NCBI GenBank assembly: GCA_963662335.2
Contig: CAXXVD010000002.1
Location: 672,001 to 736,000 of the forward strand
Length of the DNA: 64,000 nucleotides
Source of the DNA: Chloroflexota bacterium
GTDB taxonomy: Bacteria > Chloroflexota > UBA11872 > VXOZ01
Direction: 5' to 3'
Positions 6,628 to 54,376 of the stretch are shown piece after piece. The notes beneath the pieces were generated by a model. That model did not search any database. It had not been told where the DNA came from and saw only the letters and a list, made by a program, of their open reading frames with translations. Position numbers and translations under genes: made by a program. Each line of letters opens with the position of its first letter. The first letter of the stretch is position 1.

Positions 6628-9600
6628 ATGGCCGCATCCAAACTCATCACCGCCGTTGAGACCTACTTTGCCGCGCTGCGGCAGGTGCGCGCTTCCGGCG
6701 GGGCTACCGACGAGCGCTCGCTCTATCCGCCGCTGGCCGCATTGTTGGACGCTGTCGGCGCCACGCTCAAGCCTAAGATCTTTTGCGTGAGCGACATGAC
6801 CGACCAAGGGGCCGGGCATCCCGATTTTGGTCTCTATGTGAAAAAGCGGTCGTCCGGCTCACGTTCGTCAGCGGCCCCGAAACCCAACGGCAGCGACGTG
6901 CCCGAACGCGGCGTGGTCGAAGTCAAGCCCCTGCACGACGACGCCTGGCTCACCGCCGCCAGCGACCAGGTCAGCCGCTACTGGCAGCGCTACCGCCTGG
7001 TGCTGGTCACCAACTGCCGCGACTTCGTGCTGCTGGGCGAGGACGCGCAGGGCCGTCCCGCCAAATTGGAGACCTTCCGGCTGGCGGCGGACGCCGACGA
7101 ATTCACGCAAAAGCTGCAAAAGCCCCGCGCCTTTGCCCGTGACGTGGGCGCCGGACTGGGCGAATACCTCTGCCGGGCGCTTGCGCACCGGGCGGCGCTG
7201 GCCGAGCCGCGCGACCTCGCGTGGCTGCTGGCCTCCTACGCCCGCGACGGCCTGGCGCGGGTTGAGGCGGCCGGTGACGCGCCATCTCTGACGGCGGTGC
7301 GCGAGGCGCTTGAGGAGGCGCTGGGCGTCCGCTTCGAGGGCAATAGAGGCGCGGCCTTCTTCCGTTCCACGCTGGTGCAGACGCTCTTCTACGGCGTCTT
7401 TTCCGCCTGGGTGCTCTGGTCGCGGGCACTGCCGCCGCCGGTGGGCGCGTTCGATTGGCGCACCGCCGTCTGGCACCTGCGCGCGCCGGTGTTGCGGGCG
7501 CTCTTCCAGCAGCTTTCCGATCCCGGCCGCCTGCAACCGCTGGGCCTCGTCGAGGTGCTGGACTGGACCGCCGCCGCGCTCGACCGGGTAGACCGGCAGA
7601 CGTTTTTCACCCGCTTCAGCGAGGGCGAGGCCGTGCCCTACTTCTACGAGCCGTTCCTGGAAGCCTTCGATCCCGCCCTGCGCAAGCAACTGGGCGTCTG
7701 GTACACGCCCGCCGAGGTGGTGCGCTACATGGTGGCGCGGGTGGATAAGGCGCTCAAGGACGACCTGGGCATCAGCGACGGCCTGGCGGCGGAAAACGTC
7801 TACGTGCTGGATCCCTGCTGCGGCACCGGCGCGTTTCTGGCGGAAACGCTGCGGCGCATCGCCGAGAACCTCCGGAGCCGCGGTCTGGGCGCGCTGGCGG
7901 GCGTGAAAGTGAAGGAAGCGGCCAAGGCGCGGGTCTTCGGTTTCGAGATCATGCCCGCGCCGTTCGTGGTCGCCCATCTCCAGGTTGGCCTGACCCTGCA
8001 AGCCCTGGACGCGCCCCTGGCGGACGACGCGCCGGGACTCGCAGGCGCGGACGACCAGGAGCGTCCCGGCATCTTCCTCACCAACGCCCTCACCGGCTGG
8101 GAACCCAAGACCCAGAAGCCGCTGCCGTTTCCCGAGTTGGAGCAGGAGCGCGAGCGCGCCGAACGGGTGAAGCGCGACGCGCCGATCCTGGTGGTGCTGG
8201 GCAATCCGCCCTACAACGGCTTCGCCGGCATGGCTGTGGACGAGGAGCGGGAACTCTCCACCGCCTACCGCGCCGCCAAGCGCGTGCGCCGCCCGGAAGG
8301 CCAGGGGCTGAACGACCTCTACGTCCGCTTCTTCCGCATGGCCGAACGCCGCATCGCCGAGAAAACCGGCCAGGGCGTCGTCTGCTTCATCTCCAACTAC
8401 TCCTGGCTCGACGGCCTCTCCTTCACCGGCATGAGAGAACGCTACCTGGAGGCGTTCGACGCCATCCGCATCGACAATCTGCACGGCGACCGCATCATTT
8501 CGGAATATGCGCCCGACGGACGCACCAGCGAAACGGTCTTCTCTATTAGAGGAAAGTCGCCAGGCATCAAGATTGGCACGAGCATCACGTTGCTAACCAA
8601 GAGACCTGGCTCGAAACCGAAAGGAAAGCACATCCTGTACCGCGACTTTGACCAAGCGCGCGCGGACGAAAGAAGGCAGGCGCTGCTGGACAGCCTGAAT
8701 GCCCCCACGATGGATTCAGGATACGCCAACTTGGAACCCGATCTGCGGCTTGGCTTGCCGTTCAAGCCAATGGCGGTGAGTGATGATTGGTTCGACTGGC
8801 CTGCGCTAATTGACCTGTTCCCTACTTCTTATCCGGGAGTCAAAACCAGCCGTGACTCATTTCTCGTTGACATCGATCTCGACCGGCTGAGGGCGCGTGT
8901 AGCGGATTACTTCGACGCGGAACTGGGCCATGAGGAAATTGCGCGGCTCTATCCAGGCGTGATGCGCAGTACGGCGGGATTCAATGCTCACGCTGTCCGC
9001 AATGCGCTACTTGACCGCGGCGGGCCACTTGCAAGCGGATTCATCCGCTACGCCTACCGCCCCTTCGACACCCGCTGGCTTTACTGCGAAACGGAAAGCA
9101 GGTTGCTGGATCGGCCACGCTCAGAGTTCGGCCCGCATGTGTTCGAGGGGAACGTGTGGTTTGAAGCGAGAGAAAGAGAAGCACAGGAAGAGTTTTCGCG
9201 TGGAACACTGATTCGAAATCTTGCAGACAACTTTGGAAACGGACTTTCTAGTTTCTTCCCCGCTTGGCTCCGCGAAACCGGCCTCGGAGCCGACGAGTCT
9301 AGCGTACAACGTGTCCCCAATCTTTCACCTGCCGCACAGCGCTACCTTCAGCGGCTCAACTTGGGTGTGGAAGGCCTTTTCTACCATGTGCTCGCCGTGC
9401 TCCACGACCCCGCCTACCGCGCGGCCAACGCCGGCGCCCTGCGCATGGAGTGGCCGCGCATCCCCCTGCCCGGTTGGCCCGAACTCAGCGCAGCCGACCC
9501 CGCCGTCACTCCGGCGAAAGCCGGAATCCAGGAGCCTGCGGACACCGCACAACCGGACACTTCCGCCGTAGCCTCCGTCGTTCCCGTGAAAACGGGAACC

Positions 9601-10137
9601 CATCCCTCCGAAGCGGCGCAAACCCTCGCGGCCTCCGCCGCTCGCGGCCGCCAACTGGCCGCGCTCCTCGACTCCGACACCCCCGTGCCCGGCGTCACCA
9701 CCGGCGACCTACGGCCCGAAATCAGCGCCATCGCCGTACCCGCCACCACCGGCAACCGCAACATGACCGCCGCCGACTTCGCCCTCACCGCCGGCTGGGG
9801 CCACTTCGGCAGCGCCCAAGCCGTCATGCCCGGCCAAGGCAAAGCCACCGAACGCCCCTACACCCCCGCCGAGCGCGAGGCCCTCGGCAACTCCGTCACT
9901 ATCCTCGGCGAGACCACCTACGACATCCACCTCAACGACCGCGCCTACTGGCAAAACGTCCCCGCCAACGTCTGGCGCTACAAACTCGGCGGCTACCAAG
10001 TCCTCAAGAAATGGCTTTCCTACCGCGAACAACCCGTCCTAGGCCGCCCCCTGAAGCCGGAAGAAGTGCAACACTTCACCGACACCGCCCGCCGGATTGC
10101 CGCTATACTAGACTTAGCAAGTTCTGACGTTTTGTAA
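6628..10137 (+). CDS. Single-polypeptide restriction-modification enzyme (Type IIG-like; N6-adenine MTase with Type ISP-like C-terminal specificity domain, no helicase)
   Basis: N-terminal PD-(D/E)xK-like GHPDFG...VVEVK...LVTN. MTase motifs GVWYTP, VLDPCCGTG and GNPPY. C-terminal YAYRPFD and WRYKLGGYQVLKKWLSYRE. Confidence 0.85.
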   Translation: MAASKLITAVETYFAALRQVRASGGATDERSLYPPLAALLDAVGATLKPKIFCVSDMTDQGAGHPDFGLYVKKRSSGSRSSAAPKPNGSDVPERGVVEVKPLHDDAWLTAASDQVSRYWQRYRLVLVTNCRDFVLLGEDAQGRPAKLETFRLAADADEFTQKLQKPRAFARDVGAGLGEYLCRALAHRAALAEPRDLAWLLASYARDGLARVEAAGDAPSLTAVREALEEALGVRFEGNRGAAFFRSTLVQTLFYGVFSAWVLWSRALPPPVGAFDWRTAVWHLRAPVLRALFQQLSDPGRLQPLGLVEVLDWTAAALDRVDRQTFFTRFSEGEAVPYFYEPFLEAFDPALRKQLGVWYTPAEVVRYMVARVDKALKDDLGISDGLAAENVYVLDPCCGTGAFLAETLRRIAENLRSRGLGALAGVKVKEAAKARVFGFEIMPAPFVVAHLQVGLTLQALDAPLADDAPGLAGADDQERPGIFLTNALTGWEPKTQKPLPFPELEQERERAERVKRDAPILVVLGNPPYNGFAGMAVDEERELSTAYRAAKRVRRPEGQGLNDLYVRFFRMAERRIAEKTGQGVVCFISNYSWLDGLSFTGMRERYLEAFDAIRIDNLHGDRIISEYAPDGRTSETVFSIRGKSPGIKIGTSITLLTKRPGSKPKGKHILYRDFDQARADERRQALLDSLNAPTMDSGYANLEPDLRLGLPFKPMAVSDDWFDWPALIDLFPTSYPGVKTSRDSFLVDIDLDRLRARVADYFDAELGHEEIARLYPGVMRSTAGFNAHAVRNALLDRGGPLASGFIRYAYRPFDTRWLYCETESRLLDRPRSEFGPHVFEGNVWFEAREREAQEEFSRGTLIRNLADNFGNGLSSFFPAWLRETGLGADESSVQRVPNLSPAAQRYLQRLNLGVEGLFYHVLAVLHDPAYRAANAGALRMEWPRIPLPGWPELSAADPAVTPAKAGIQEPADTAQPDTSAVASVVPVKTGTHPSEAAQTLAASAARGRQLAALLDSDTPVPGVTTGDLRPEISAIAVPATTGNRNMTAADFALTAGWGHFGSAQAVMPGQGKATERPYTPAEREALGNSVTILGETTYDIHLNDRAYWQNVPANVWRYKLGGYQVLKKWLSYREQPVLGRPLKPEEVQHFTDTARRIAAILDLASSDVL

Positions 10138-11349: not shown

Positions 11350-12177
11350 ATGCGCGTTTTCATCAGTCACTGCAGTCTCGACGAAGAGGTGACTGAAGTC
11401 CTTGTCGATCTTCTTCGACAGGCATTGAATCTGAGAAGTGAAGACATACGATGTACTAGCCTTGACGGTTACCGCCTGCCTGGTGGTGCAATTACGAGCG
11501 AGGCCCTTCGGAAAGAGGTGAACGAAGCGGCTTTGGTCATCGGGCTAATAACCCCCAATTCTATCAAGTCGGCCTACGTACTCTTTGAGCTAGGCGCGCG
11601 CTGGGGCATGGAGAAAGATATGATTCCTCTACTTGCTTCCGGCACGAAACCAGAAAACCTGGAAGGACCGCTTAAGGACATCAATGCGCTGGACTGTTCC
11701 GAAGATGGCCAGGTCCATCAGTTGATAGAAGATGCGGCGAAGTATCTGAAGTGCCAACCAGATTCTGCGAGTTCGTATTCAAGTCCAATTAAGAAGCTAA
11801 TGGGCGCATCATCAAAGGTCTTGCACAGCGGAATGCACGTCGTTACCAATAGCGAAGATCAATTGGCCCAGTCACCATCGACTAATCCTGAGGTTCCAGC
11901 ACTCACGGAGGAAGCTAAGCTTCTATTGATCAAAGCCTCCAATGACAGGCACGGAAGAATTCTAAAAGTTACGACCCAAGGCGGTACGCGAGTCTCTACT
12001 GATGGAGAAGAGTTCACGGATGGCAGCCCTCGCTCAGAAGCCTTATGGGAAGGGGCACTTGCGCAACTCGTTGAATACAGTCTTATTGAAGATACGGGGA
12101 GTGGACAGGTGTTCAAATTGACACACGAAGGGTACACTGCCGCTGACAAGATTAAGGCAGCCGGGAGCCCTGACTGA
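11350..12177 (+). CDS. TIR domain-containing protein with C-terminal winged-helix-like domain
   Basis: MRVFISH start, SAYVLFELGARWG (TIR catalytic Glu position) and IPLL. A low-complexity linker precedes a second domain. Confidence 0.8.
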   Translation: MRVFISHCSLDEEVTEVLVDLLRQALNLRSEDIRCTSLDGYRLPGGAITSEALRKEVNEAALVIGLITPNSIKSAYVLFELGARWGMEKDMIPLLASGTKPENLEGPLKDINALDCSEDGQVHQLIEDAAKYLKCQPDSASSYSSPIKKLMGASSKVLHSGMHVVTNSEDQLAQSPSTNPEVPALTEEAKLLLIKASNDRHGRILKVTTQGGTRVSTDGEEFTDGSPRSEALWEGALAQLVEYSLIEDTGSGQVFKLTHEGYTAADKIKAAGSPD

Positions 12178-12859: not shown

Positions 12860-13315
12860 TCAGAATTCTCGCAGGCTGTTGAAGTTTACCGCCGCAGCGG
12901 GCTCTTTGCTTGCCGCTTGTCGGTATAGGTCGAGGTCCACGGTAAGCAGTGGAGCCTCTGGCGAAACGACTTCCAGGAGAGCGGCGTCAGTGATTCCTAG
13001 TCGCCTGAACGCCGGGTTCTTGGCGGCAACAGTAGCTGCGACAGCCACTTCCTTGCTTCCATGGATTAAATGCTGTAGTTGGGCGATTAGGCGGGAGCGT
13101 TCCGGGTCTTTGTGCTGCGCGAGCAGATTAGAGGTCTCAGTGAGCGTGTGGGGTGTCACGAATACCTGCTCGACGCCAGCCACTAAGCGGGCTAGCGTGT
13201 CGTAGTCTCTTGCTGTGAATCGGCGCAATCGCTTGTGTTTGGCGATTATGTCTTTACCAGACCTGCCAACGATGAGAAGCAATAGAAGGTTCGAATCGAC
13301 GAATAGACCTGCCAT
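12860..13315 (-). CDS. PIN domain protein (VapC-like)
   Basis: LFVDSNLL, LTETSNL, LGITDAAL and LLTVDLDL acidic PIN motifs. Confidence 0.85.
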   Translation of the reverse strand: MAGLFVDSNLLLLLIVGRSGKDIIAKHKRLRRFTARDYDTLARLVAGVEQVFVTPHTLTETSNLLAQHKDPERSRLIAQLQHLIHGSKEVAVAATVAAKNPAFRRLGITDAALLEVVSPEAPLLTVDLDLYRQAASKEPAAAVNFNSLREF

Positions 13316-14087: not shown

Positions 14088-14162
14088 TGGTGGCGGGGGT
14101 GAGAATCGAACTCACAACCTAGGGCTTATGAGTCCCCCGCTCTACCATTGAGCTACCCCGCC
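14088..14162 (-). tRNA. tRNA-Met (CAT), elongator type, CCA encoded
   Basis: GGCGGGGTAGCTCAATGGTAGAGCGGGGGACTCATAAGCCCTAGGTTGTGAGTTCGATTCTCACCCCCGCCACCA folds as a cloverleaf. Confidence 0.9.
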
Positions 14163-14217
14163 GGGTTGTGCGTCTACCGGGCCAGCCGGTGGGGACTCGG
14201 CGGCTGGCATTGACAAG

Positions 14218-14290
14218 TGGGCCCACCTGGATTCGAACCAGGGACCTTCTCCTTATGAGGGAGCAGCTCTAACCGCTGAGCTATGGGCCC
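14218..14290 (-). tRNA. tRNA with CAT anticodon, probably tRNA-Ile2 (lysidine-modified)
   Basis: GGGCCCATAGCTCAGCGGTTAGAGCTGCTCCCTCATAAGGAGAAGGTCCCTGGTTCGAATCCAGGTGGGCCCA. Ile-like acceptor stem, CCA not encoded. Confidence 0.85.
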
Positions 14291-29858: not shown

Positions 29859-30434
29859 TCAAGCCCCTGTTGCGGTAAGATGAAGAATCTCAAGACTGCT
29901 CGGTGAAGCGCCCGCTACGCGCTTGAAGTCGGAATCAGCAGTGACGAATGTCCCCGCGTGCGCCTCTGCCAGGGCGAGGTGAAGCGCGTCGTCCGGCGTA
30001 AGGTCGAGATCGCGCATGTAGCGGATTGCCGCCGCCGTCAATGGTGGCGTAAAGGTTGCGCTGACCGGTACCACGTCCACCTGATGCCCGGCTTCTCGCC
30101 AAACGTGGATTGCACGCGCGACGCCTTCGATCCAGTCGCCGTGCTTCTCGAAGGAAGCGCCTTTCCATTTACGAAATGTGCTTCTTGTGAAACGGGCGCC
30201 GTGCGGTTGCTCATCGAGCGTGGGGTAGGACTCCCGGAACATTCCCCACCAGGCTTCTTGCAATGAAATCATGGAAACCAAGATAGGCGCGCCAGTGATA
30301 AGCAACTCCCCGACCACATCCTTGCAACGCTTGTAGAGGTGGTGGCTACTTGCTACGTAGCCGACAAGCACATTGGCGTCCAAGTAGACGGGTGACTGAA
30401 ACGTGTAACCTGGTTGCCAGCGCGTGACGAGCAT
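29859..30434 (-). CDS. PIN domain protein
   Basis: VYLDANVL, ISLQEA, PDDALHLA and FVTADSDF. Confidence 0.85.
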   Translation of the reverse strand: MLVTRWQPGYTFQSPVYLDANVLVGYVASSHHLYKRCKDVVGELLITGAPILVSMISLQEAWWGMFRESYPTLDEQPHGARFTRSTFRKWKGASFEKHGDWIEGVARAIHVWREAGHQVDVVPVSATFTPPLTAAAIRYMRDLDLTPDDALHLALAEAHAGTFVTADSDFKRVAGASPSSLEILHLTATGA

Positions 30435-30435
30435 T

Positions 30436-30810
30436 CTAGTAGTCCGGCGGTGTGGTCAATTCCACCACGTCGAGTTCAGGTGAACCGGGGACGACACCCA
30501 TGTACCGCACGAACGCCGTGAACAACTTGGGCGACATCCGCTGTCGATAGTAATCGAGGTCGAATTCACCGAACCGCCGCTGGTACTCTGACTTCTTCAC
30601 ATAGTAATCCGGGGCAACCTTGATCCACGGCTCACCCCCCGGTACATCCTGGGCAGACCCACTTTCCTGAATTGCACTGCCCGGCATTGCTCCATTCAGC
30701 CAGTCCGTGTCCTGGGATTTGGTAGCCTTGGCAGTAAAGAGGCTGTTTGAAGTCTCTCTTCGATAGGCCGGCGCCCTATCTATCTGCAAGACAGAGTCCG
30801 TTGACATCAC
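30436..30810 (-). CDS. Hypothetical protein, middle gene of a three-gene cassette
   Basis: Overlaps the upstream stop (GTGA) and ends 1 bp before the PIN start. Confidence 0.6.
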   Translation of the reverse strand: MMSTDSVLQIDRAPAYRRETSNSLFTAKATKSQDTDWLNGAMPGSAIQESGSAQDVPGGEPWIKVAPDYYVKKSEYQRRFGEFDLDYYRQRMSPKLFTAFVRYMGVVPGSPELDVVELTTPPDY

Positions 30811-33014: not shown

Positions 33015-33334
33015 TGTGGCCTTGCCTCCATGCAGCCCGGGTACGCTCTTTGCGTCGCAGCGGTCTCGTTCAAACGTGCGCGGCGCACGCGCGGCAATCC
33101 GGTTGCGCGCCGCTTCCGCTCAAACCGGAGATTGCTCCATGCTCTCTAGTATGCGGGAGAAAGCTGGGAATTTCCTGAGATTCTGAGGGAAAACTGTGTA
33201 TTTGGGTGCTTAAGTCACGTCGCGTTGCACGCTTGACCGCCCAAAGCAGCGCGCTGCCCCAGGCAGGGAAGCGGCGCACTGTTCTTTCGCATTCTATCAT
33301 GCGGGCAACGGCGGGCGCAGGCCAGGCAACGCGG

Positions 33335-34597
33335 TCAAAGCTCGCGGGCGCCGATGTCGCTGCGGGAGTAGGCGTTCTCAAACGAGACGCGCGCGAGGTT
33401 GTCGTAGGCGCGGGCGCGGGCGTGGGGCACGTTGGCGGCTTGCCCGACGGTCAGCAACACCCGGCCGCCGGCGGTGACGACCGTGTCGTCTGACAAGGCG
33501 GTACCGGCGTGGAAGAGCAACGCGTCGTCATCCAGCGTATCCAGTCCCGCTATGGGATGGCCGGTGGTATAGGAACCGGGATAGCCGCCGGAAGCAAGCA
33601 CCACGCCGCAGGTAGCGGCCGGATCCCAGGTCACGTCCGTCTCCGCCAGCCTGCCATCCACCGCGGCCTGAAACACCGCAACCAGGTCGGCCTGCAAGCG
33701 CGGCAGGATGAGTTGCGCCTCCGGATCGCCGAAACGCACGTTGAACTCCACGATGCGCGGGCCGTCGTGGGTGAGCATCAGTTGCCCGTAGAGCACACCG
33801 GCGTAGGGGCGGCCTTCCTGCGCCATGAGCGTGATTGTGCGCGCCATGATGTCGTGGTGGATGTAGTCAAGGGTCTCCGGGTCCACGAACGGAGCCGGCG
33901 AATAGCCGCCCATGCCGCCGGTATTGGGGCCGGCATCGCCGTCGAACGCGCGCTTGTAGTCGCAGGCGGTGGCCAGCGGCGTGATGCGCGCGCCGTCGGC
34001 AAAGGCGAAGACCGAAATTTCCGTGCCGCGCAGGCACTCCTCGATGACGATGCGGTCGCCGGATGCGCCAAAGGCCCGGTCTGACATGATGGTGTCCAGC
34101 GCCCGCATAGCCTCCGCGCGCGAAGAGCAGACGAAGACGCCCTTGCCGGCGGTCAGGCCGTCGGGCTTGAGCACGATTTCCCGGTCCGGCGCTTGCTCGA
34201 TGTAGGCGGCCGCCGCGTTCCGCTCGTTGAAAATGGCAAAGCCGGCCGTGGGCAGGCCGTGCCGCCGCATGAACTCCTTGGCCCAGACCTTGCTCCACTC
34301 CAGTTTAGCCGCCGCCTGCGTGGGGCCGAATGCGCGCTGGCCGCAGGCTTGTAGTGCGTCAACTGCGCCGAGTGCCAGGGGGTCGTCTTGGGCCACCACC
34401 GTGAGGTCGATGGCGTTTTGCCGCACCCAGGCGACGAGAGAATCGATGTCGGTCGCCGCAATGGGCACGTTCTCTCCCAGAGCCGCCGTGCCGGCGTTAC
34501 CGGGGGCAACGAAGAGGGTCGGCTGGAGGGGACTCTGGGCGCATTTCCAGGCAATGGCGTGCTCACGTCCGCCCCCGCCGACAATCAGAATGCGCAT
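33335..34597 (-). CDS. purD: Phosphoribosylamine--glycine ligase
   Basis: GGGGREHA, LEWSK, DGLTAGKGV, GPNTGGMG and EFNVRFGDPE. Confidence 0.97.
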   Translation of the reverse strand: MRILIVGGGGREHAIAWKCAQSPLQPTLFVAPGNAGTAALGENVPIAATDIDSLVAWVRQNAIDLTVVAQDDPLALGAVDALQACGQRAFGPTQAAAKLEWSKVWAKEFMRRHGLPTAGFAIFNERNAAAAYIEQAPDREIVLKPDGLTAGKGVFVCSSRAEAMRALDTIMSDRAFGASGDRIVIEECLRGTEISVFAFADGARITPLATACDYKRAFDGDAGPNTGGMGGYSPAPFVDPETLDYIHHDIMARTITLMAQEGRPYAGVLYGQLMLTHDGPRIVEFNVRFGDPEAQLILPRLQADLVAVFQAAVDGRLAETDVTWDPAATCGVVLASGGYPGSYTTGHPIAGLDTLDDDALLFHAGTALSDDTVVTAGGRVLLTVGQAANVPHARARAYDNLARVSFENAYSRSDIGAREL

Positions 34598-34604
34598 AAC
34601 CCGC

Positions 34605-34988
34605 TTACTCCAGCGCTAGCTGACCCGCGCGAAAGTCGATGGTCAAGCGCCTGCCGCGCAGGAAGTCCAGGCCCAAGACCCCGTCAATGGCGGCGCGGGA
34701 CGGCAGCGTGTGGCAGAGCACGGGCACGTTCGTTAGCGCTTTCCCCAACGCTTCGAGCCTATCAATCTTCAGCAAGGGCACTGAAATCGCACCGCTGCCA
34801 GTGATAATGCGCGTCCGTCTATCTGACTCGGCAGGCTCGTAGCCGAGATGGAGCGCAATTTGCCGGCTAATGACCGTCCTCGTAGCGCCGGTGTCTAACC
34901 CCAGACGGACGGTTTCAGGGCGTTTGCCAAGATAGAGAGTGGCAGGAACGACGATGAGACTGCCGCGCGGATCGAAGCTGTAGGTCAT
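34605..34988 (-). CDS. Retropepsin-like aspartic protease (P3)
   Basis: LDTGATRT and IDGVLGLDFL. ATGA-coupled to the upstream gene. Confidence 0.85.
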   Translation of the reverse strand: MTYSFDPRGSLIVVPATLYLGKRPETVRLGLDTGATRTVISRQIALHLGYEPAESDRRTRIITGSGAISVPLLKIDRLEALGKALTNVPVLCHTLPSRAAIDGVLGLDFLRGRRLTIDFRAGQLALE

Positions 34989-35236
34989 AGGAGGAATTCT
35001 ACATCGTTCGGCAACTCGCCAAAGTACCACACGGCAACGTGACTCGGTTCACGGCCCTCCTCGCGCAGACGCCTCAGCGCGCCATAGACGGCGACCCGGT
35101 CCTCATCGTGGGCGAGCACAACGCCGCGTATCACCTCGCTCATGGGTGTCAGGTCCGGTTCGCCGATCAGCACCCACTCGCCGCCATAGGCCGCTTCCAT
35201 CTCGGCGTAGGTCATGACGGTTGCTTGTGTTTTCAT
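34985..35236 (-). CDS. DUF5678-like small protein (A5)
   Basis: MTYAEMEAAYGGEWVLIG...GVVLAHD...DVEFLL. Confidence 0.75.
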   Translation of the reverse strand: MKTQATVMTYAEMEAAYGGEWVLIGEPDLTPMSEVIRGVVLAHDEDRVAVYGALRRLREEGREPSHVAVWYFGELPNDVEFLL

Positions 35237-35284
35237 AGTATGGTCGCTCCTCGATTGGGTTTCTGCGCGGATTCAACGGGAAAC

Positions 35285-35536
35285 TCATAGTAGGAATTCA
35301 ACGTCATTCGGCCTCTCACCGATGAAGTGGACGGCAATATCGCTAGGCGCGCGTCCCTGCGCTTGCAGTTGCCACAGCGCCTCGTAGACGGCGATCCGGT
35401 CCTGGTCGTGCGCAAGCACGACGCCGCGTATTATCTGAAGCATCGGCGTCAAGTCTGGATCGCCAACCAGCACCCACTCGCGGTCAAAGGCCGCTTCCAT
35501 CTCGGCGTAGGTCATAACGGTTGCTTGCGTCTTCAT
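35285..35536 (-). CDS. DUF5678-like small protein (A4)
   Basis: MKTQATVMTYAEMEAAFDREWVLVG...NDVEFLL with AAGGAG RBS. Confidence 0.75.
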   Translation of the reverse strand: MKTQATVMTYAEMEAAFDREWVLVGDPDLTPMLQIIRGVVLAHDQDRIAVYEALWQLQAQGRAPSDIAVHFIGERPNDVEFLL

Positions 35537-35667
35537 GGTATGGCCGCTCCTTATGCGCTCCCTGCGATAGTAGCAGAGATTCTGCTCTACTGTGGGCTTG
35601 GGTGGCCCACGAGCCAGCAATGGCCCCTGGATGCCGAACGCCGCTTTTGCAGCTGCCATAGGCCCAT

Positions 35668-36051
35668 TCAATCCAGCGAAAGTAGACCCGCGCGAAAGTC
35701 GATGGTCAAGCGGCCGCCACGTAGGAAATCTAACCCTAACACGCCGTCGATGGCAGTTTGCGAAGGGAGGGTGTGGCAGAGAATGCGCGCGTCGGTTGCT
35801 TCCTTGCCGAGCGCCTCGATCTTCTCAATCTCCAGCATGGGTACGGACAAAGCGCCGCTCCCCGTGAGGATTCGGGCCCGGTCGCGCGCACGAGACGGCT
35901 CGTAGCCCAAGGAAATTGCGACTGAACTGCTTATCAGCGTGCGCGTAGCGCCGGTGTCCAGCGCCAGTCGCAAGACCTCAACACGACCGCCGCGGTAGAG
36001 CCGGGCCGGAACGACGATGAGATGGGCGCGTGGATTGAAACGGAACGTCAT
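35668..36051 (-). CDS. Retropepsin-like aspartic protease (P2)
   Basis: LDTGATRT, ILTGSG flap and IDGVLGLDFL. Confidence 0.85.
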   Translation of the reverse strand: MTFRFNPRAHLIVVPARLYRGGRVEVLRLALDTGATRTLISSSVAISLGYEPSRARDRARILTGSGALSVPMLEIEKIEALGKEATDARILCHTLPSQTAIDGVLGLDFLRGGRLTIDFRAGLLSLD

Positions 36052-36299
36052 AGGAGGAAATCAACATCATCCGGCGCCTCGCCAAAGTACCACACGGCGA
36101 ATTCATTGGGCGCAATTCCGGCTTCTTGCAAGCGCCACAGCGCCTCATACACGGCTTCCCGGTTCCCGTCATGGGCGAGCACGGCGCCGCTGATGATCTC
36201 CAGCATAGGAGTGAGATCCGGCTCGCCAACCAGCACCCACTCGCCGTCGTAGGCCGCTTCCATTTCGGCGTAGGTCATGACGGTTGCTTGGGTCTTCAT
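36048..36299 (-). CDS. DUF5678-like small protein (A3)
   Basis: MKTQATVMTYAEMEAAYDGEWVLVG...DDVDFLL. Confidence 0.75.
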   Translation of the reverse strand: MKTQATVMTYAEMEAAYDGEWVLVGEPDLTPMLEIISGAVLAHDGNREAVYEALWRLQEAGIAPNEFAVWYFGEAPDDVDFLL

Positions 36300-36434
36300 G
36301 GTACGGTCGCTCCTTACTTCCTCAACTAGGATTGCAGCGGTTGCTGCTGTCGCCCGTAACTTCCAATTGTAGTCCAAGAATTGTGTCGGGCACGATCATA
36401 GGGCCTATGCGGAGGGTTAGTGGTTTCAGTCAAT

Positions 36435-36671
36435 CTACAACACGAAGTGCAAGTCTGCCGGCGGCGCGCCGATGTAGAGAATTGCGACGCGACTGAGATC
36501 GCGCTGAGCTGCTTCGCGGTACACTGCTTCCCGGCTCTTGCTGTGGGCCAACACGGTGCCGCGAATTATCCCGTTCATGTCGGTGAGTTCGGGGTCGTCG
36601 ATCAGCACCCACTCGCCGTCATAGGCCGCTTCCATCTCAGCGTAAGTCATCATGGTTGATTGCGTCTTCAT
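36435..36671 (-). CDS. DUF5678-like small protein (A2)
   Basis: MTYAEMEAAYDGEWVLID...LAHSKSREAVY...DLHFVL. Confidence 0.75.
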   Translation of the reverse strand: MKTQSTMMTYAEMEAAYDGEWVLIDDPELTDMNGIIRGTVLAHSKSREAVYREAAQRDLSRVAILYIGAPPADLHFVL

Positions 36672-36745
36672 TCAATCGTGCTCCTTATGTCCTCGTTTGG
36701 ATGATAGCAGACAGTCCACCATTTGTGCGGCTGCCATTGGGCCAT

Positions 36746-37129
36746 TCAATCTAGCGAAAGTGCGCCTGCGCGAAAGTCGATGAGCAGCCTTCCCCCGCGC
36801 AGGAAATCCAATCCCAACACGCCGTCTATGGCAGTGCGAGGCGGTAGCGTATGGCACAGAATCGAAAAGTCGGATTCCGCTTTTCCCAAGGCGTGGACGC
36901 TCGCTAGGCTTACCTCCAGCACCGACTCTAGGCCGCTGCCAGTAGTTATCTCCGCCGGTGTTCCTTCCTCGTCTAGTTGGCATCCAACATATTCGAGCGC
37001 ACTGCGCTTGACTACTGTTGCGGTAGCTCCGGTGTCAAGAGCGAGTTCGACTGTTACTTCTCGTTGCGGCCCGTAGAGGGTGACAGGTACGACGATTAGG
37101 CCGTCGCGGGGGTTGAAAGAGTAGGCCAT
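36746..37129 (-). CDS. Retropepsin-like aspartic protease (P1)
   Basis: LDTGATAT, ITTGSG and IDGVLGLDFL. Confidence 0.85.
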   Translation of the reverse strand: MAYSFNPRDGLIVVPVTLYGPQREVTVELALDTGATATVVKRSALEYVGCQLDEEGTPAEITTGSGLESVLEVSLASVHALGKAESDFSILCHTLPPRTAIDGVLGLDFLRGGRLLIDFRAGALSLD

Positions 37130-37130
37130 T

Positions 37131-37367
37131 CTACAAGAGAAAGTCTACGTCTGTCGGGCGGGCGCCCATGTAGAGAATGGCCGCCCGCTTTTGGCTGCGC
37201 CTCATTGCTTCGCGGTACACGGCATCCTGGCTCTTGCTATGGAAGAGCACCGTGCCTCGGCGCACCTCATTCATCGCCGAAAGCTCGGGTTCGCCAATCA
37301 GTACCCACTCGCCGTCGTAGGCGGCTTCCATCTCAGCGTAGGTCATTACGGCCGTTTCTGTCGCCAT
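37131..37367 (-). CDS. DUF5678-like small protein (A1)
   Basis: MATETAVMTYAEMEAAYDGEWVLIG...TDVDFLL with GGAGG RBS. Confidence 0.75.
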   Translation of the reverse strand: MATETAVMTYAEMEAAYDGEWVLIGEPELSAMNEVRRGTVLFHSKSQDAVYREAMRRSQKRAAILYMGARPTDVDFLL

Positions 37368-37664
37368 GGCGGATTTCCTCCTTCGTGTAGTCTCGTTAAT
37401 GCTATCAGATAGGACGCGGCGCGTGCGCGCCGGCCGCCAAAATTGGAAAGCCGTGCGCTCCGGGCGCAGATTGACTGGTCTGTGCAACACTAATAGCGCT
37501 CGCCGGATTGAGCCTGGCACACACGCGCCGCGGCCACGGGACCGGCCGCCGCTTTGCTATACTGGCCGGGTGGAATAGCCGCGCCCGTGCGGCCCGACGC
37601 CGGTCCAAGTAACGGAACACCGGGTCCCCCCGCACCGGCTATGAAGAACAAGAGGAGACGAACC

Positions 37665-38705
37665 ATGCGCATCCAAAGCAACTTACGTGTGCTACTGGCG
37701 GCAATCGCGGCCGTTGTCTTGGCCGTGGGCTGTATGCAGGCGCCGCCGCGGGACCAGGATGAGCCGGCGGCGCAGCCGGAAGCCATCATCTTCAACGACC
37801 TCAACTGGGATAGCGCCCGCGTGCAGAACCGCATCGCGCAGTACATCGTGGAAAAGGGCTACGGCTACGCCACCGGCGTGGTGGCCGGGCCGTCGGTGCC
37901 GTTGCTGGAGGGTCTCCGGCGGGGCGAGAGCCACGTGACGATGGAAGTCTGGCTGCCAAACCAGAGTGAGGCCTGGGAAGCGGCGGTGGCGGCGGGAGAA
38001 GCGGCGGCCGTGGGCGAGAGCCTGCAAGGCATCGCGCAGGCCACGTTCATGATCCCGGCGTATCTCCAGGAAGCATATCCGGAGCTAGACAGTGTTGAGG
38101 ACTTGAAAGAGGAGCAATATCGAGCACTGTTCGCCACTGCGGAGAGCGAGGGCAAGATTCGCCTGCTAACCTGTCCGCCCGGCTGGGCCTGCGAGGCCGT
38201 GAACGCGGCGAAAGTGGCGGGCTACGGGCTGAGCGACCACGTGCAGATCGTCGTGCCGGAATCCGATGCGGCATTGAACGATGAGGTGTTTGCCCGCTAC
38301 GCGGCCGGCGAACCGTGGCTTGGCTACCTTTCCGGTGAAATGCCCGCCGCGCTCAAGTTGGACATGGTCGCGCTGCAAGAACCGCCCTACAGCGACGAGT
38401 GCTGGGCCTCGACCAAGGCCTGCGCGTATGAGGATACGACGCTGGTGATTGGGGTCGGCGCCGCCCTGCTTAGCGACGCGCCGGACGTGGTGGCCGTGCT
38501 GCAAAACTGGGACCTGAGCATCGAGCGCTACCGCGCCGTGGCGGTCTGGCAGATCGACAACGAGGCCAGTGTGGAGGAGACCGCTCTCTGGTGGCTGCAA
38601 AACAACGGTGACGTTTGGCGCGAATGGGTCACGGCGGAAGCGGCAACCGCCATCCAGGCCGCCTTGGACGCCGGCGAGCGCGCGGACGGCTGGCCGGCGG
38701 AGTAG
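37665..38705 (+). CDS. Glycine betaine/proline ABC substrate-binding lipoprotein (ProX/OpuAC family)
   Basis: AVGC lipobox, LNWDS, MEVWLPN and CPPGWAC. Confidence 0.85.
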   Translation: MRIQSNLRVLLAAIAAVVLAVGCMQAPPRDQDEPAAQPEAIIFNDLNWDSARVQNRIAQYIVEKGYGYATGVVAGPSVPLLEGLRRGESHVTMEVWLPNQSEAWEAAVAAGEAAAVGESLQGIAQATFMIPAYLQEAYPELDSVEDLKEEQYRALFATAESEGKIRLLTCPPGWACEAVNAAKVAGYGLSDHVQIVVPESDAALNDEVFARYAAGEPWLGYLSGEMPAALKLDMVALQEPPYSDECWASTKACAYEDTTLVIGVGAALLSDAPDVVAVLQNWDLSIERYRAVAVWQIDNEASVEETALWWLQNNGDVWREWVTAEAATAIQAALDAGERADGWPAE

Positions 38706-53413: not shown

Positions 53414-53552
53414 TGTGCTGGACAAACGGCGTAAGCCTGAGAATTCCTTGCCTGATTGGAGGTTAGATGCGTAGCTAACGCCTAAGGGGTGTGCAAAGAG
53501 CCGTATGGTAGAATAGTACTATCAAAGCGTGTATTGGCAAGGGGATAGCATC

Positions 53553-54017
53553 ATGGAGCACGACGCCAGAAGCGTGGCGAACGAATTGCTTCGCCGAGCC
53601 AAAGACGACGGCAGCCCGATAACCCACTTGAAGGTCATGAAGTTGGTCTACTTCTGCCATGCGTGGATGCTGGGCCTCTATCATGAACCGCTGCAATTTC
53701 AACCGGTTGAAGCATGGCGGTACGGCCCAGTGGTGCGAGACGTGTACCGCAGTCTACGGCGGTATGGCGGCGAGCCGATCAACCGCCCGATCAGCATTGC
53801 GGATGAAGAGTACACCCCTACCCAGAAGGATCTCATGGATCAAGTCTGGGAAGTCTACGGCAAATACACCGCCAGACAGTTGTCCGCCATAACCCATGCT
53901 CCTGGGACGCCATGGCACCAGGTCTGGCATCAATGGGGAAAGAGCGCCGTCATACCCGATCCTATGATTGAGGACTATTACGCAGACCTCTATGAGCAAT
54001 CGACAAGAGAGCCATGA
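53553..54017 (+). CDS. Panacea (DUF4065, SocA-like) antitoxin
   Basis: VANELL, ITHLKVMKLVYF, EAWRYGPVV and LSAITHAPGTPW. Confidence 0.9.
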   Translation: MEHDARSVANELLRRAKDDGSPITHLKVMKLVYFCHAWMLGLYHEPLQFQPVEAWRYGPVVRDVYRSLRRYGGEPINRPISIADEEYTPTQKDLMDQVWEVYGKYTARQLSAITHAPGTPWHQVWHQWGKSAVIPDPMIEDYYADLYEQSTREP

Positions 54018-54376
54018 GCAGACAGGTCCCGGATGCGCGGCAGCCGCCAACGGAAACCGACGAGCCTCGCGCGGAAGAGGATTCCTTTGGTAGAGGTTCG
54101 ATCGAGGAAAGACTGGAAGCCGGCGAATTCCGGCGCTCGGAGAGACTGAGAGACGCGCTAAACGACGGCATCGTCTACGTCGCGCTCGTAGCGCCGTACT
54201 TCCTCGCAATAATCGGCGCAGTGCTCATGGTTGTGATGCTGTGGCATTACATTGGCCGTGAAGAATGGGCGTGGATGACGCCGCAGCAAGTTGACAAGGT
54301 GGAAGCGGTGTTCGGCGGCGGCATTCTGTCGGCGCTCTTCATCATGCTTAGAGACTATGTTGGTCGGAGAAAGTAG
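54014..54376 (+). CDS. Two-TM membrane protein, putative toxin partner of the Panacea antitoxin
   Basis: ATGA overlap with the antitoxin. Acidic N-terminus and two hydrophobic helices. Confidence 0.65.
   Translation: MSRQVPDARQPPTETDEPRAEEDSFGRGSIEERLEAGEFRRSERLRDALNDGIVYVALVAPYFLAIIGAVLMVVMLWHYIGREEWAWMTPQQVDKVEAVFGGGILSALFIMLRDYVGRRK

Follow-up and report, generated by a model that had tools for sequence, protein, structure and literature searches.

The closest described relatives of the locus analyzed here are single-domain proteases of clan AA, namely APRc of Rickettsia (PDB entry 5c9f), which is membrane-anchored, RimB of Pseudomonas and RloA of P. aeruginosa, together with a two-gene phage defence candidate, PDC-M08. 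RimB is a cytoplasmic retropepsin-like protease that forms a complex with RimA and RimK and acts on a specific substrate (PMC11957791), and the Rlo proteases function with products of their own operon, RloA being secreted (PMC12239564). PDC-M08 was predicted by 'guilt by embedding'; its source describes the PDC set as 145 phage defence candidates, chosen for their embedding in BREX, DISARM or type I restriction-modification loci (bioRxiv 10.1101/2024.01.29.577857). The locus in question is an array of eight small genes, encoding three retropepsin-like proteases and five small partner proteins, at positions 34605-37367 of a 64-kb stretch of a Chloroflexota genome (contig CAXXVD010000002.1, positions 672,001 to 736,000; hereafter the window). 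Throughout, A denotes a partner gene or protein and P a protease gene or protein.

We propose that this locus consists of tandem copies of a two-gene, toxin-antitoxin-like protease/inhibitor module, a reading to which we assign a probability of roughly 0.45. The proposal draws on the tight coupling of A and P, the conserved but patchy distribution of the pair, its variable copy number, the repeated loss of P with retention of A, a predicted A-P complex, and a link to PDC-M08. As in type II toxin-antitoxin systems, a small upstream gene precedes a co-oriented downstream enzyme gene with a 4-nt overlap, the pair is scattered across phyla, the enzyme is often lost while the small gene is kept, and the small protein lies, here by model prediction, over the active site of the enzyme. 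Unlike those systems, A has no known DNA-binding fold. To our knowledge, no characterized type II toxin is an aspartic protease, and a full-text literature search with a three-term query returned no paper joining retropepsin-like proteases to toxin-antitoxin in bacteria. An earlier reading of the DNA from its sequence alone (the sequence-only reading) had put forward a protease-based toxin-antitoxin or immunity system; predicted binding, conserved pairing and selection lend that idea partial support, whereas its view of the additional partners and its description of the array as expanding need revision, as set out below.

All eight genes claimed by that reading were found, co-oriented on the minus strand, in the transcription order A1-P1-A2-A3-P2-A4-A5-P3, with purD following:

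37131..37367, minus strand: A1, 78 residues, 78-type partner; AAGGAGG ribosome-binding site upstream, and a 1-nt gap before P1
36746..37129, minus strand: P1, 127-residue retropepsin-like aspartic protease of the subtype paired with 78-type A; isoelectric point (pI) 4.6
36435..36671, minus strand: A2, 78 residues, 78-type partner; no protease directly 3' of it
36048..36299, minus strand: A3, 83 residues, 83-type partner; ATGA overlap with P2
35668..36051, minus strand: P2, 127-residue retropepsin-like protease of the subtype paired with 83-type A; pI 10
35285..35536, minus strand: A4, 83 residues, 83-type partner; intact protease missing on its 3' side
34985..35236, minus strand: A5, 83 residues, 83-type partner; ATGA overlap with P3
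34605..34988, minus strand: P3, 127-residue retropepsin-like protease of the subtype paired with 83-type A; pI 10
33335..34597, minus strand: purD (phosphoribosylamine-glycine ligase), with GARS_N, GARS_A and GARS_C domains; start 7 nt past the P3 stop

The tight coupling of each P to an upstream A holds in every case, by ATGA overlap for A3/P2 and A5/P3 and by the 1-nt gap for A1/P1. AAGGAG-like ribosome-binding sites lie upstream of all five A genes and of none of the three P genes. The array has a G+C content of 0.57-0.61, compared with about 0.65 in its flanks, and is bordered in the window by an OpuAC gene and purD. Hidden Markov models (HMMs) built from the array genes found no further A or P copy within the 64 kb.

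Comparison of P1-P3 with known families places them firmly among the retropepsin-like aspartic proteases. All three exceed the curated Pfam cut-offs for PF13975 and PF13650 (E 1e-8 to 1e-13; 37.2 and 36.0 bits for P1, 42.6 and 40.6 for P2, 47.9 and 51.8 for P3, against cut-offs of 28.2 and 24.3), and each carries the DTGA and DGVLGLDFL motifs, in agreement with the claim of three intact 127-residue enzymes. Identity of the P copies to P1 is 56%, and of 34 aligned P proteins 31 retain DTGA, the other three reading DTDA, NTGA and DTGE. The NCBIfam models TIGR02281 (best 35.6 bits, cut-off 57.95) and TIGR03698 (at most 17.7 bits, cut-off 57.35) stay below threshold. A structure model of P2 (predicted local distance difference test score, pLDDT, 94.5) has APRc as its best PDB neighbor (5c9f, the Rickettsia conorii retropepsin-like protease; E 5e-7, template-modelling score 0.75), with HIV-1 protease next; most of its 253 PDB matches at E<=0.001 are HIV-1 protease. 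Like APRc, RimB and RloA, P shows the single-domain clan AA fold with one catalytic aspartate. By sequence profile, the nearest solved relatives of P are the retroviral-protease-like domains of Ddi1 (4z2z and 2i1a, E 2.6e-4); Ddi1, however, is a multidomain shuttle protein, there is no sign that A is ubiquitin-like, and the A model has no PDB neighbor at E<=0.001. Inspection of P1-P3 by eye, with no signal-peptide or membrane predictor run, revealed no obvious N-terminal signal or membrane segment.

The proteases also connect the array to PDC-M08. P1-P3 match the PADLOC models for component B (PDC-M08B; PDLC04402 and PDLC04405) with E values of 1e-10 to 1e-13 over approximately positions 4-123 of 127-128, and PDC-M08 likewise consists of two genes, with a component B that is retropepsin-like and about 127 residues long. 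The partners in the window differ in this respect: none of A1-A5 matches the component A model (PDC-M08A, PDLC04400) at E<=1, whereas 5 of 67 A-family members do match it, with a best value of 7.9e-5. Judged from these profile matches, the A-P pair appears to belong to an already listed defence-candidate family, the window partners probably being too divergent for the PDC-M08A model. The module also departs from PDC-M08 in forming a tandem array with orphan A genes. As to the other relatives, RimB and the Rlo proteases resemble P in working with partner proteins from the same operon, but the partners of RimB are RimA and RimK rather than a DUF5678-like protein.

The two partner subtypes recognized by the sequence-only reading are well separated: A1 and A2 have 78 residues, and A3, A4 and A5 have 83 and carry a 5-residue insertion, with identities to A1 of 51-65% and separate clades at a support of 100/100. 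Its label 'DUF5678-like' is borne out as a weak, distant relation but applies poorly to the window copies themselves, of which A2 alone touches PF18929 (DUF5678), below the cut-off (E 0.12, 12.6 bits, cut-off 23.2), while A1, A3, A4 and A5 give no match at E<=10. Since PF18929 is matched singly by 7 of 38 A-family members, with a best E of 5.9e-6, we take the kinship to be distant; the Atlas clusters nearest to A were automatically named 'putative DUF5678' (score 0.96). A model of A with a pLDDT of 92.1 shows a beta-alpha-beta-beta-alpha-beta core followed by an extended tail, and has no fold neighbor at E<=0.001 in the PDB or among viral models. A sequence-profile search of the PDB with A gave short, spurious TPR matches and nothing convincing, and no Pfam DNA-binding domain was found in A. 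The C-terminal tail is hydrophobic, its commonest endings being FLL, VVL or similar. The family is large: among 1.84 billion representatives, a profile of A picks out 1177 when the threshold is E<=0.001 and 406 when it is E<=1e-10, each representing a cluster. Among the 150 family representatives listed, 8 contain two A domains in a chain of 160-207 residues (P0070, P0071, P0073, P0076, P0077, P0109, P0164 and P0171). These double-A chains suggest that A may act as a dimer, an arrangement that the A2-A3 and A4-A5 tandems would echo.

A single complex of two P1 chains and one A1 chain, with a separate alignment for each chain, was modelled in three runs. The median score of the complex was 0.87, compared with 0.02 for the best of three controls; of 157 solved complexes 116 attain the mark of 0.87, as do 2 of 215 mismatched pairs, a calibration that is only rough for our own alignments and for a three-chain job. 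The partner is modelled with a pLDDT of at least 85, and at least 83% of the contacts are common to the runs. The sequence-only reading depended on partners that bind the proteases, and the predicted complex, at 0.87 against 0.02 for the control, supports binding of P by A. On the A side, the modelled interface comprises residues 27-35, 47-55 and 59-66 and the tail, 68-78. Contacts with one P copy extend over a wide surface, residues 32 and 34-35 included; the other copy is contacted at residues 32, 34-37, 39, 59-64, 91, 93 and 104 only, which correspond to the catalytic motif, the flap tip (TGSG hairpin) and nearby residues of the cleft. The modelled A touches residue 32 of both P copies. Because contacts to the second copy are confined to the catalytic motif, flap tip and adjacent cleft, the body of A would sit on one P monomer, with its hydrophobic C-terminal tail placed in the active-site cleft of the dimer.

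The pairing of A with P extends well beyond the window. A scan of one genome per species fetched 62 loci, and our own HMMs identified 67 A genes in 61 of these outside the window, L062 being without A; as the scan was seeded on A, it is silent on how often P occurs without A. The loci come from Chloroflexota, Binatia, Acidobacteriota, Planctomycetota, Verrucomicrobiota, Armatimonadota, Bacteroidota, Proteobacteria and others. A full-length P follows on the same strand after 40 of the 67 A genes, with a 4-nt overlap in 29 of these 40 pairs, and a partial or split P follows a further 10 of 67; no P follows 16 of 67, and the contig ends after the remaining one (1/67). The linkage of the pair, which the sequence-only reading had proposed to survey, is thus conserved elsewhere. 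Examination of the imperfect cases revealed P split into two open reading frames (ORFs) beside an intact A (L024, L034 and L056), short P fragments beside an intact A (L015, L023 and L049), and tiny N-terminal relics of P after A (L031 and L038). A frameshifted or truncated P next to an intact A would be a decay pattern typical of toxin loss.

The copies in the window do not evolve neutrally. The ratio of nonsynonymous to synonymous substitution rates (dN/dS) is 0.18-0.37 for all 13 paralogue pairs, with dS of 0.74-2.4, near saturation; for A2 against the other A copies it is 0.23-0.35, and A2 has the longest end branch in the A tree (0.41). By these estimates the copies date from old duplications and have all been under constraint, the orphan A genes among them. 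Trees of the Chloroflexota copies resolve two matched sets of clades: P proteins that follow a 78-type A (6 rows) and those that follow an 83-type A (14 rows) separate with a support of 100/100 each, as do 78-type (8 rows) and 83-type (16 rows) A proteins. As subtype labels are shared by kin, these matched clades mark two old pair lineages and are not proof of co-evolution.

The chromosomal position of the module is conserved among close kin. In 14 of 14 close Chloroflexota relatives (L001-L014), whose purD proteins are 83-89% identical to that of the window, the module lies between a solute-binding protein gene and purD, which starts about 7-10 nt past the last P in 13 of the 14. What varies is the number of units: one 83-type pair in L007-L014, one 78-type pair in L001, a 78-type pair and then an 83-type pair in L002, L003 and L005, A-P-A-A-P in L004, and in L006 an A followed by a 703-residue ORF in the P position before purD. 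This ORF (L006, 4230-6338) contains a P-loop-like GPNEAGKT motif. The window array is the largest among the loci examined.

The spacers of these relatives record how such arrays grow. In L002, L003, L005 and L004, the spacer after the internal P includes some 70 nt left over from the 5' end of purD (0 of 1000 shuffles each), indicating that new units are produced when A, P and the beginning of purD are duplicated in tandem. Within the window, four spacer features bear on the same history:

36723..36748, minus strand: first copy of a shared 26-nt sequence, after the P1 stop
35645..35670, minus strand: second copy of the 26-nt sequence, after the P2 stop
36375..36437, minus strand: possible relic of a P 5' end after A2; resembles the A1/P1 junction, with ATT at the start codon position; anchored alignment reached by 8 of 1000 shuffles
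35252..35288, minus strand: possible P relic of about 12 codons after A4; keeps the ATGA overlap with the A4 stop and starts MSFPLNPR

The two 26-nt copies agree at 22 of 26 nt, in line with the conserved 3' sequence that the sequence-only reading had noticed after P1 and P2. Alignment of the window spacers after P1 and P2 to the purD 5' end is not significant, and among comparisons of window spacers with those of the relatives, P2-to-A4 against L002 alone stands out (10 of 1000 shuffles). Because the equivalent spacer in the relatives is a purD 5' relic, a duplication scar is a likelier explanation of the shared sequence than a signal, a purD origin being supported in the relatives only. The translated A4 spacer, MSFPLNPR, resembles P N-termini, and its alignment anchored to the A3/P2 junction is reached by 20 of 1000 shuffles; aligned locally to P genes, neither the A2-A3 nor the A4-A5 spacer gives a significant score (76 to 218 of 300 shuffles). 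The orphan A of L004 is followed by an unmistakable P relic of 28 codons. These traces are suggestive of A2 and A4 being the remains of two former pairs with a deleted protease, and the most economical history would comprise five pairs, with the protease lost from two. The sequence-only reading had noted two extra, uncoupled partners and allowed that partners could act as inhibitors, adaptors or sensors; the P-like relics after A2 and A4, together with the parallel in L004, favor former pairs over added sensors. Its statement that no copy is broken is accurate for the eight genes, but the spacers after A2 and A4 resemble relics of two more P genes, and the array that it called expanding has grown by tandem duplication but has also been losing proteases.

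Inspection of the regions upstream of the A genes revealed three promoter-like motifs:

37399..37409, minus strand: TCTGATAGCAT, fits the extended -10 pattern TGnTAnnAT; 31 nt upstream of the A1 start
36701..36711, minus strand: TCTGCTATCAT, 29 nt upstream of the A2 start
35567..35577, minus strand: TCTGCTACTAT, 30 nt upstream of the A4 start

The pattern TCTGNTANYAT occurs three times in the window, each time upstream of an A gene, compared with an expectation of 0.23 and 0 of 100 shuffles reaching three, a count that is partly circular because the pattern was derived by eye from these sites. In 14 of 14 syntenic relatives the first A is likewise preceded by this motif, as is the internal A in L002, L003 and L005. 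We take the motif to be a putative extended -10 promoter, which would delimit three units, A1-P1, A2-A3-P2 and A4-A5-P3, the last together with purD. A consensus promoter and terminator scan gave nothing useful within the array, and no terminator-like site was found in 33200-37700. With no such site from A1 to the end of purD, read-through from the array into purD is likely, and purD is probably co-transcribed with the array.

Taken as a toxin-antitoxin-like module, the locus could work as follows. P would be an aspartic endopeptidase of the retropepsin-like type that acts in the cytoplasm as a homodimer, each monomer providing one catalytic aspartate (D32), and A would be a small, acidic alpha/beta protein expressed from a strong ribosome-binding site of its own. 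Without such a site, P would be translated by coupling to A, and A would be present in excess. A would keep P inactive as a pseudo-substrate, its tail lying against both catalytic aspartates and both flap tips. Were A lost, as might happen under stress, during infection or when translation shuts down, the released P would cut proteins of the cell or of a virus and thereby stop growth. The A-P unit would have been tandemly duplicated at the purD junction, giving rise to two matched subtypes (78-type and 83-type), after which two of five proteases would have been lost, leaving A2 and A4. As A2 and A4 now stand first in A2-A3-P2 and A4-A5-P3, there would be two A genes for each P gene in these units. 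Inhibition, toxicity and the trigger, together with promoter function, are the parts of this scheme that we infer; A-P binding and its geometry come from the complex model, and the gene anatomy, the family assignment of P, the conserved pairing, purifying selection, synteny and the duplication scars of the relatives were observed directly.

Several observations weigh against a toxin-antitoxin-like module. The module has been inherited stably at one chromosomal site in 14 related genomes, and tblastn searches of plasmids with P1 and A2, and of phages with P3, gave no match; the module is less mobile than most toxin-antitoxin modules. For the 46 loci that do not belong to the purD group, a Pfam comparison of the closest ORF on either side (87 ORFs in all) showed the neighbors to be mostly housekeeping genes rather than defence islands. 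The array itself is not set within BREX, DISARM or restriction-modification genes, for embedding in which the PDC systems were selected. The absence of a recognizable DNA-binding fold in A means that classical type II autoregulation is not evident. Columns that discriminate the subtypes are not enriched in the modelled interface, either in P (9/21 versus 41/106, p=0.45) or in A (6/9 versus 23/64, p=0.08), and full-text searches of the literature turned up no paper on the function of the A family and nothing on toxicity, inhibition or defence for any of its members. The orphan A genes are under purifying selection, so that A could have a role of its own, and the placement of the tail in the modelled cleft would suit a substrate as well as an inhibitor.

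The last two of these points, conserved orphan A genes and a geometry that a substrate would share, would also fit a non-toxic, regulatory or housekeeping protease for which A is a dedicated substrate with a trimmed tail, an adaptor to a target, or an activator. Such an enzyme would have precedents in RimB, which works with RimA and RimK on a specific substrate (PMC11957791), and in the Rlo proteases, which work with their own operon products (PMC12239564); it would also account for the vertical stability of the module in or beside housekeeping operons (purD, panC-panD, hydantoinase B-A, PPDK-SDR), and the A-A fusions in 8 of the 150 representatives listed hint at a function centered on A. Against it stand the patchy distribution over phyla, the presence of one to three pairs among close relatives, the match of P to a defence-candidate model, and the frequent deletion or frameshift of P with retention of A, which would be unusual for a housekeeping enzyme. 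On balance, we regard a regulatory protease, the main rival explanation, as possible but doubtful.

A dedicated anti-phage role is a special case of the toxin-antitoxin-like module. In a PDC-M08-type abortive infection system, A would be a sensor or guard that is removed or titrated by a phage factor, freeing P to cleave phage or host proteins, and variants would broaden recognition. The match of P1-P3 to PDC-M08B, the 5 of 67 A-family members with a match to PDC-M08A (best 7.9e-5), the diversification into subtypes, the choice of PDC systems for embedding in BREX, DISARM and type I restriction-modification loci and the presence of other defence-type genes in the window, coding for a Type ISP restriction-modification enzyme, a TIR protein, a PIN protein and a Panacea antitoxin, all point this way. 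We nevertheless judge it unlikely: PDC-M08 is itself only a candidate, its component A model finds no match among A1-A5, variable columns show no enrichment in the modelled interface, and the array lies outside any defence system, with a defence or toxin-antitoxin neighbor in only 7 of the 46 other loci. Very improbable, in our estimate, are two further explanations, that the array consists of decaying, functionless duplicates of a selfish cassette, or that it is a system akin to those for ribosomally synthesized and post-translationally modified peptides (RiPPs), with A as precursor peptides and P as leader peptidase. The apparent deletion of two proteases would be expected of decay, but eight genes are intact with dN/dS of 0.18-0.37; the constant N-terminus and variable middle of A, and a weak NCBIfam RiPP peptide match of A5 (E 0.04), recall precursor peptides, but no gene for a modifying enzyme lies beside the array. 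The precursor and leader peptidase assignment was rejected on examination, A being a compact domain (pLDDT 92.1) rather than a leader-core peptide, and the A5 match reaching 14.2 bits against a cut-off of 28.

Should P prove to be a toxin that A restrains, toxin-antitoxin and defence systems would gain aspartic proteases as a further kind of effector, and A would represent a naturally occurring protein that inhibits a retropepsin by filling its cleft. A broader generalization, which we hold to be rather unlikely, is that retropepsin-like proteases are the toxins of a widespread toxin-antitoxin or abortive-infection class, in which a DUF5678-like antitoxin of new fold threads its C-terminal tail through the cleft and arrays hold matched specificities together with orphan inhibitors; such a tail-threading antitoxin would be a bacterial counterpart of protein-based inhibition of retroviral proteases. 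The literature searched yielded no description of a tandem array in which subtypes are matched, some partners are orphaned and duplication scars remain. With its pair of matched subtypes, its three proteases and five partners, and relatives in which the same site harbors between one and two and a half pairs, the locus offers a natural test set, and it illustrates both the formation of an array, by tandem duplication carrying a piece of purD, and its erosion, by protease deletion.

Outside the purD group, the placement of the cassette within individual lineages is similarly regular. In Planctomycetota (L027, L030 and L032) the A-P cassette lies upstream of panD, with panC upstream of it in L032; in L018 it lies between hydantoinase B and A, and in L015 only hydantoinase A is present, on the downstream side; in Acidobacteriota (L020, L021, L024 and L034) a PPDK-like gene flanks it on one side and an SDR gene on the other. 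This within-lineage placement inside housekeeping gene pairs mirrors the position of the window array directly upstream of purD. The 7 of 46 loci with a toxin-antitoxin or defence-type nearest neighbor involve PemK, PhdYeFM, PIN, DUF2442, TIR-LRR, GmrSD and HNH-EVE, DUF2442 being associated with toxin-antitoxin systems. At L053 (3938-4345), where a PIN gene lies directly upstream, the A gene is cut after about residue 52 and continues in frame into a C-terminal part that we take, by eye, to resemble a RelE/ParE-type toxin.

The window contains further defence-type genes at a distance from the array. A Type ISP restriction-modification enzyme of 1169 residues (6628-10137, plus strand; Type_ISP_C and N6_Mtase) is followed on its 3' side by a stretch of G+C 0.52-0.55 that encodes a TIR-domain protein and unannotated small ORFs (11350-12177, plus strand; 12860-13315, minus strand). 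This low-G+C stretch ends at tandem tRNA-Met genes (14088-14162 and 14217-14290, minus strand), and the whole looks like a defence island beside a tRNA site. Closer to the array, a PIN-domain gene (29859-30434, minus strand) lies directly downstream of a 124-residue ORF without a Pfam match (30436-30810, minus strand) in a region of lower G+C, and 29859-30810 may represent a VapBC-like pair. On the other side, a SocA/Panacea-domain antitoxin gene (53529-54017, plus strand) overlaps by 4 nt with a 120-residue ORF without a Pfam match (54014-54376, plus strand) at a G+C of 0.52-0.59, making 53529-54376 a candidate Panacea-type toxin-antitoxin pair.

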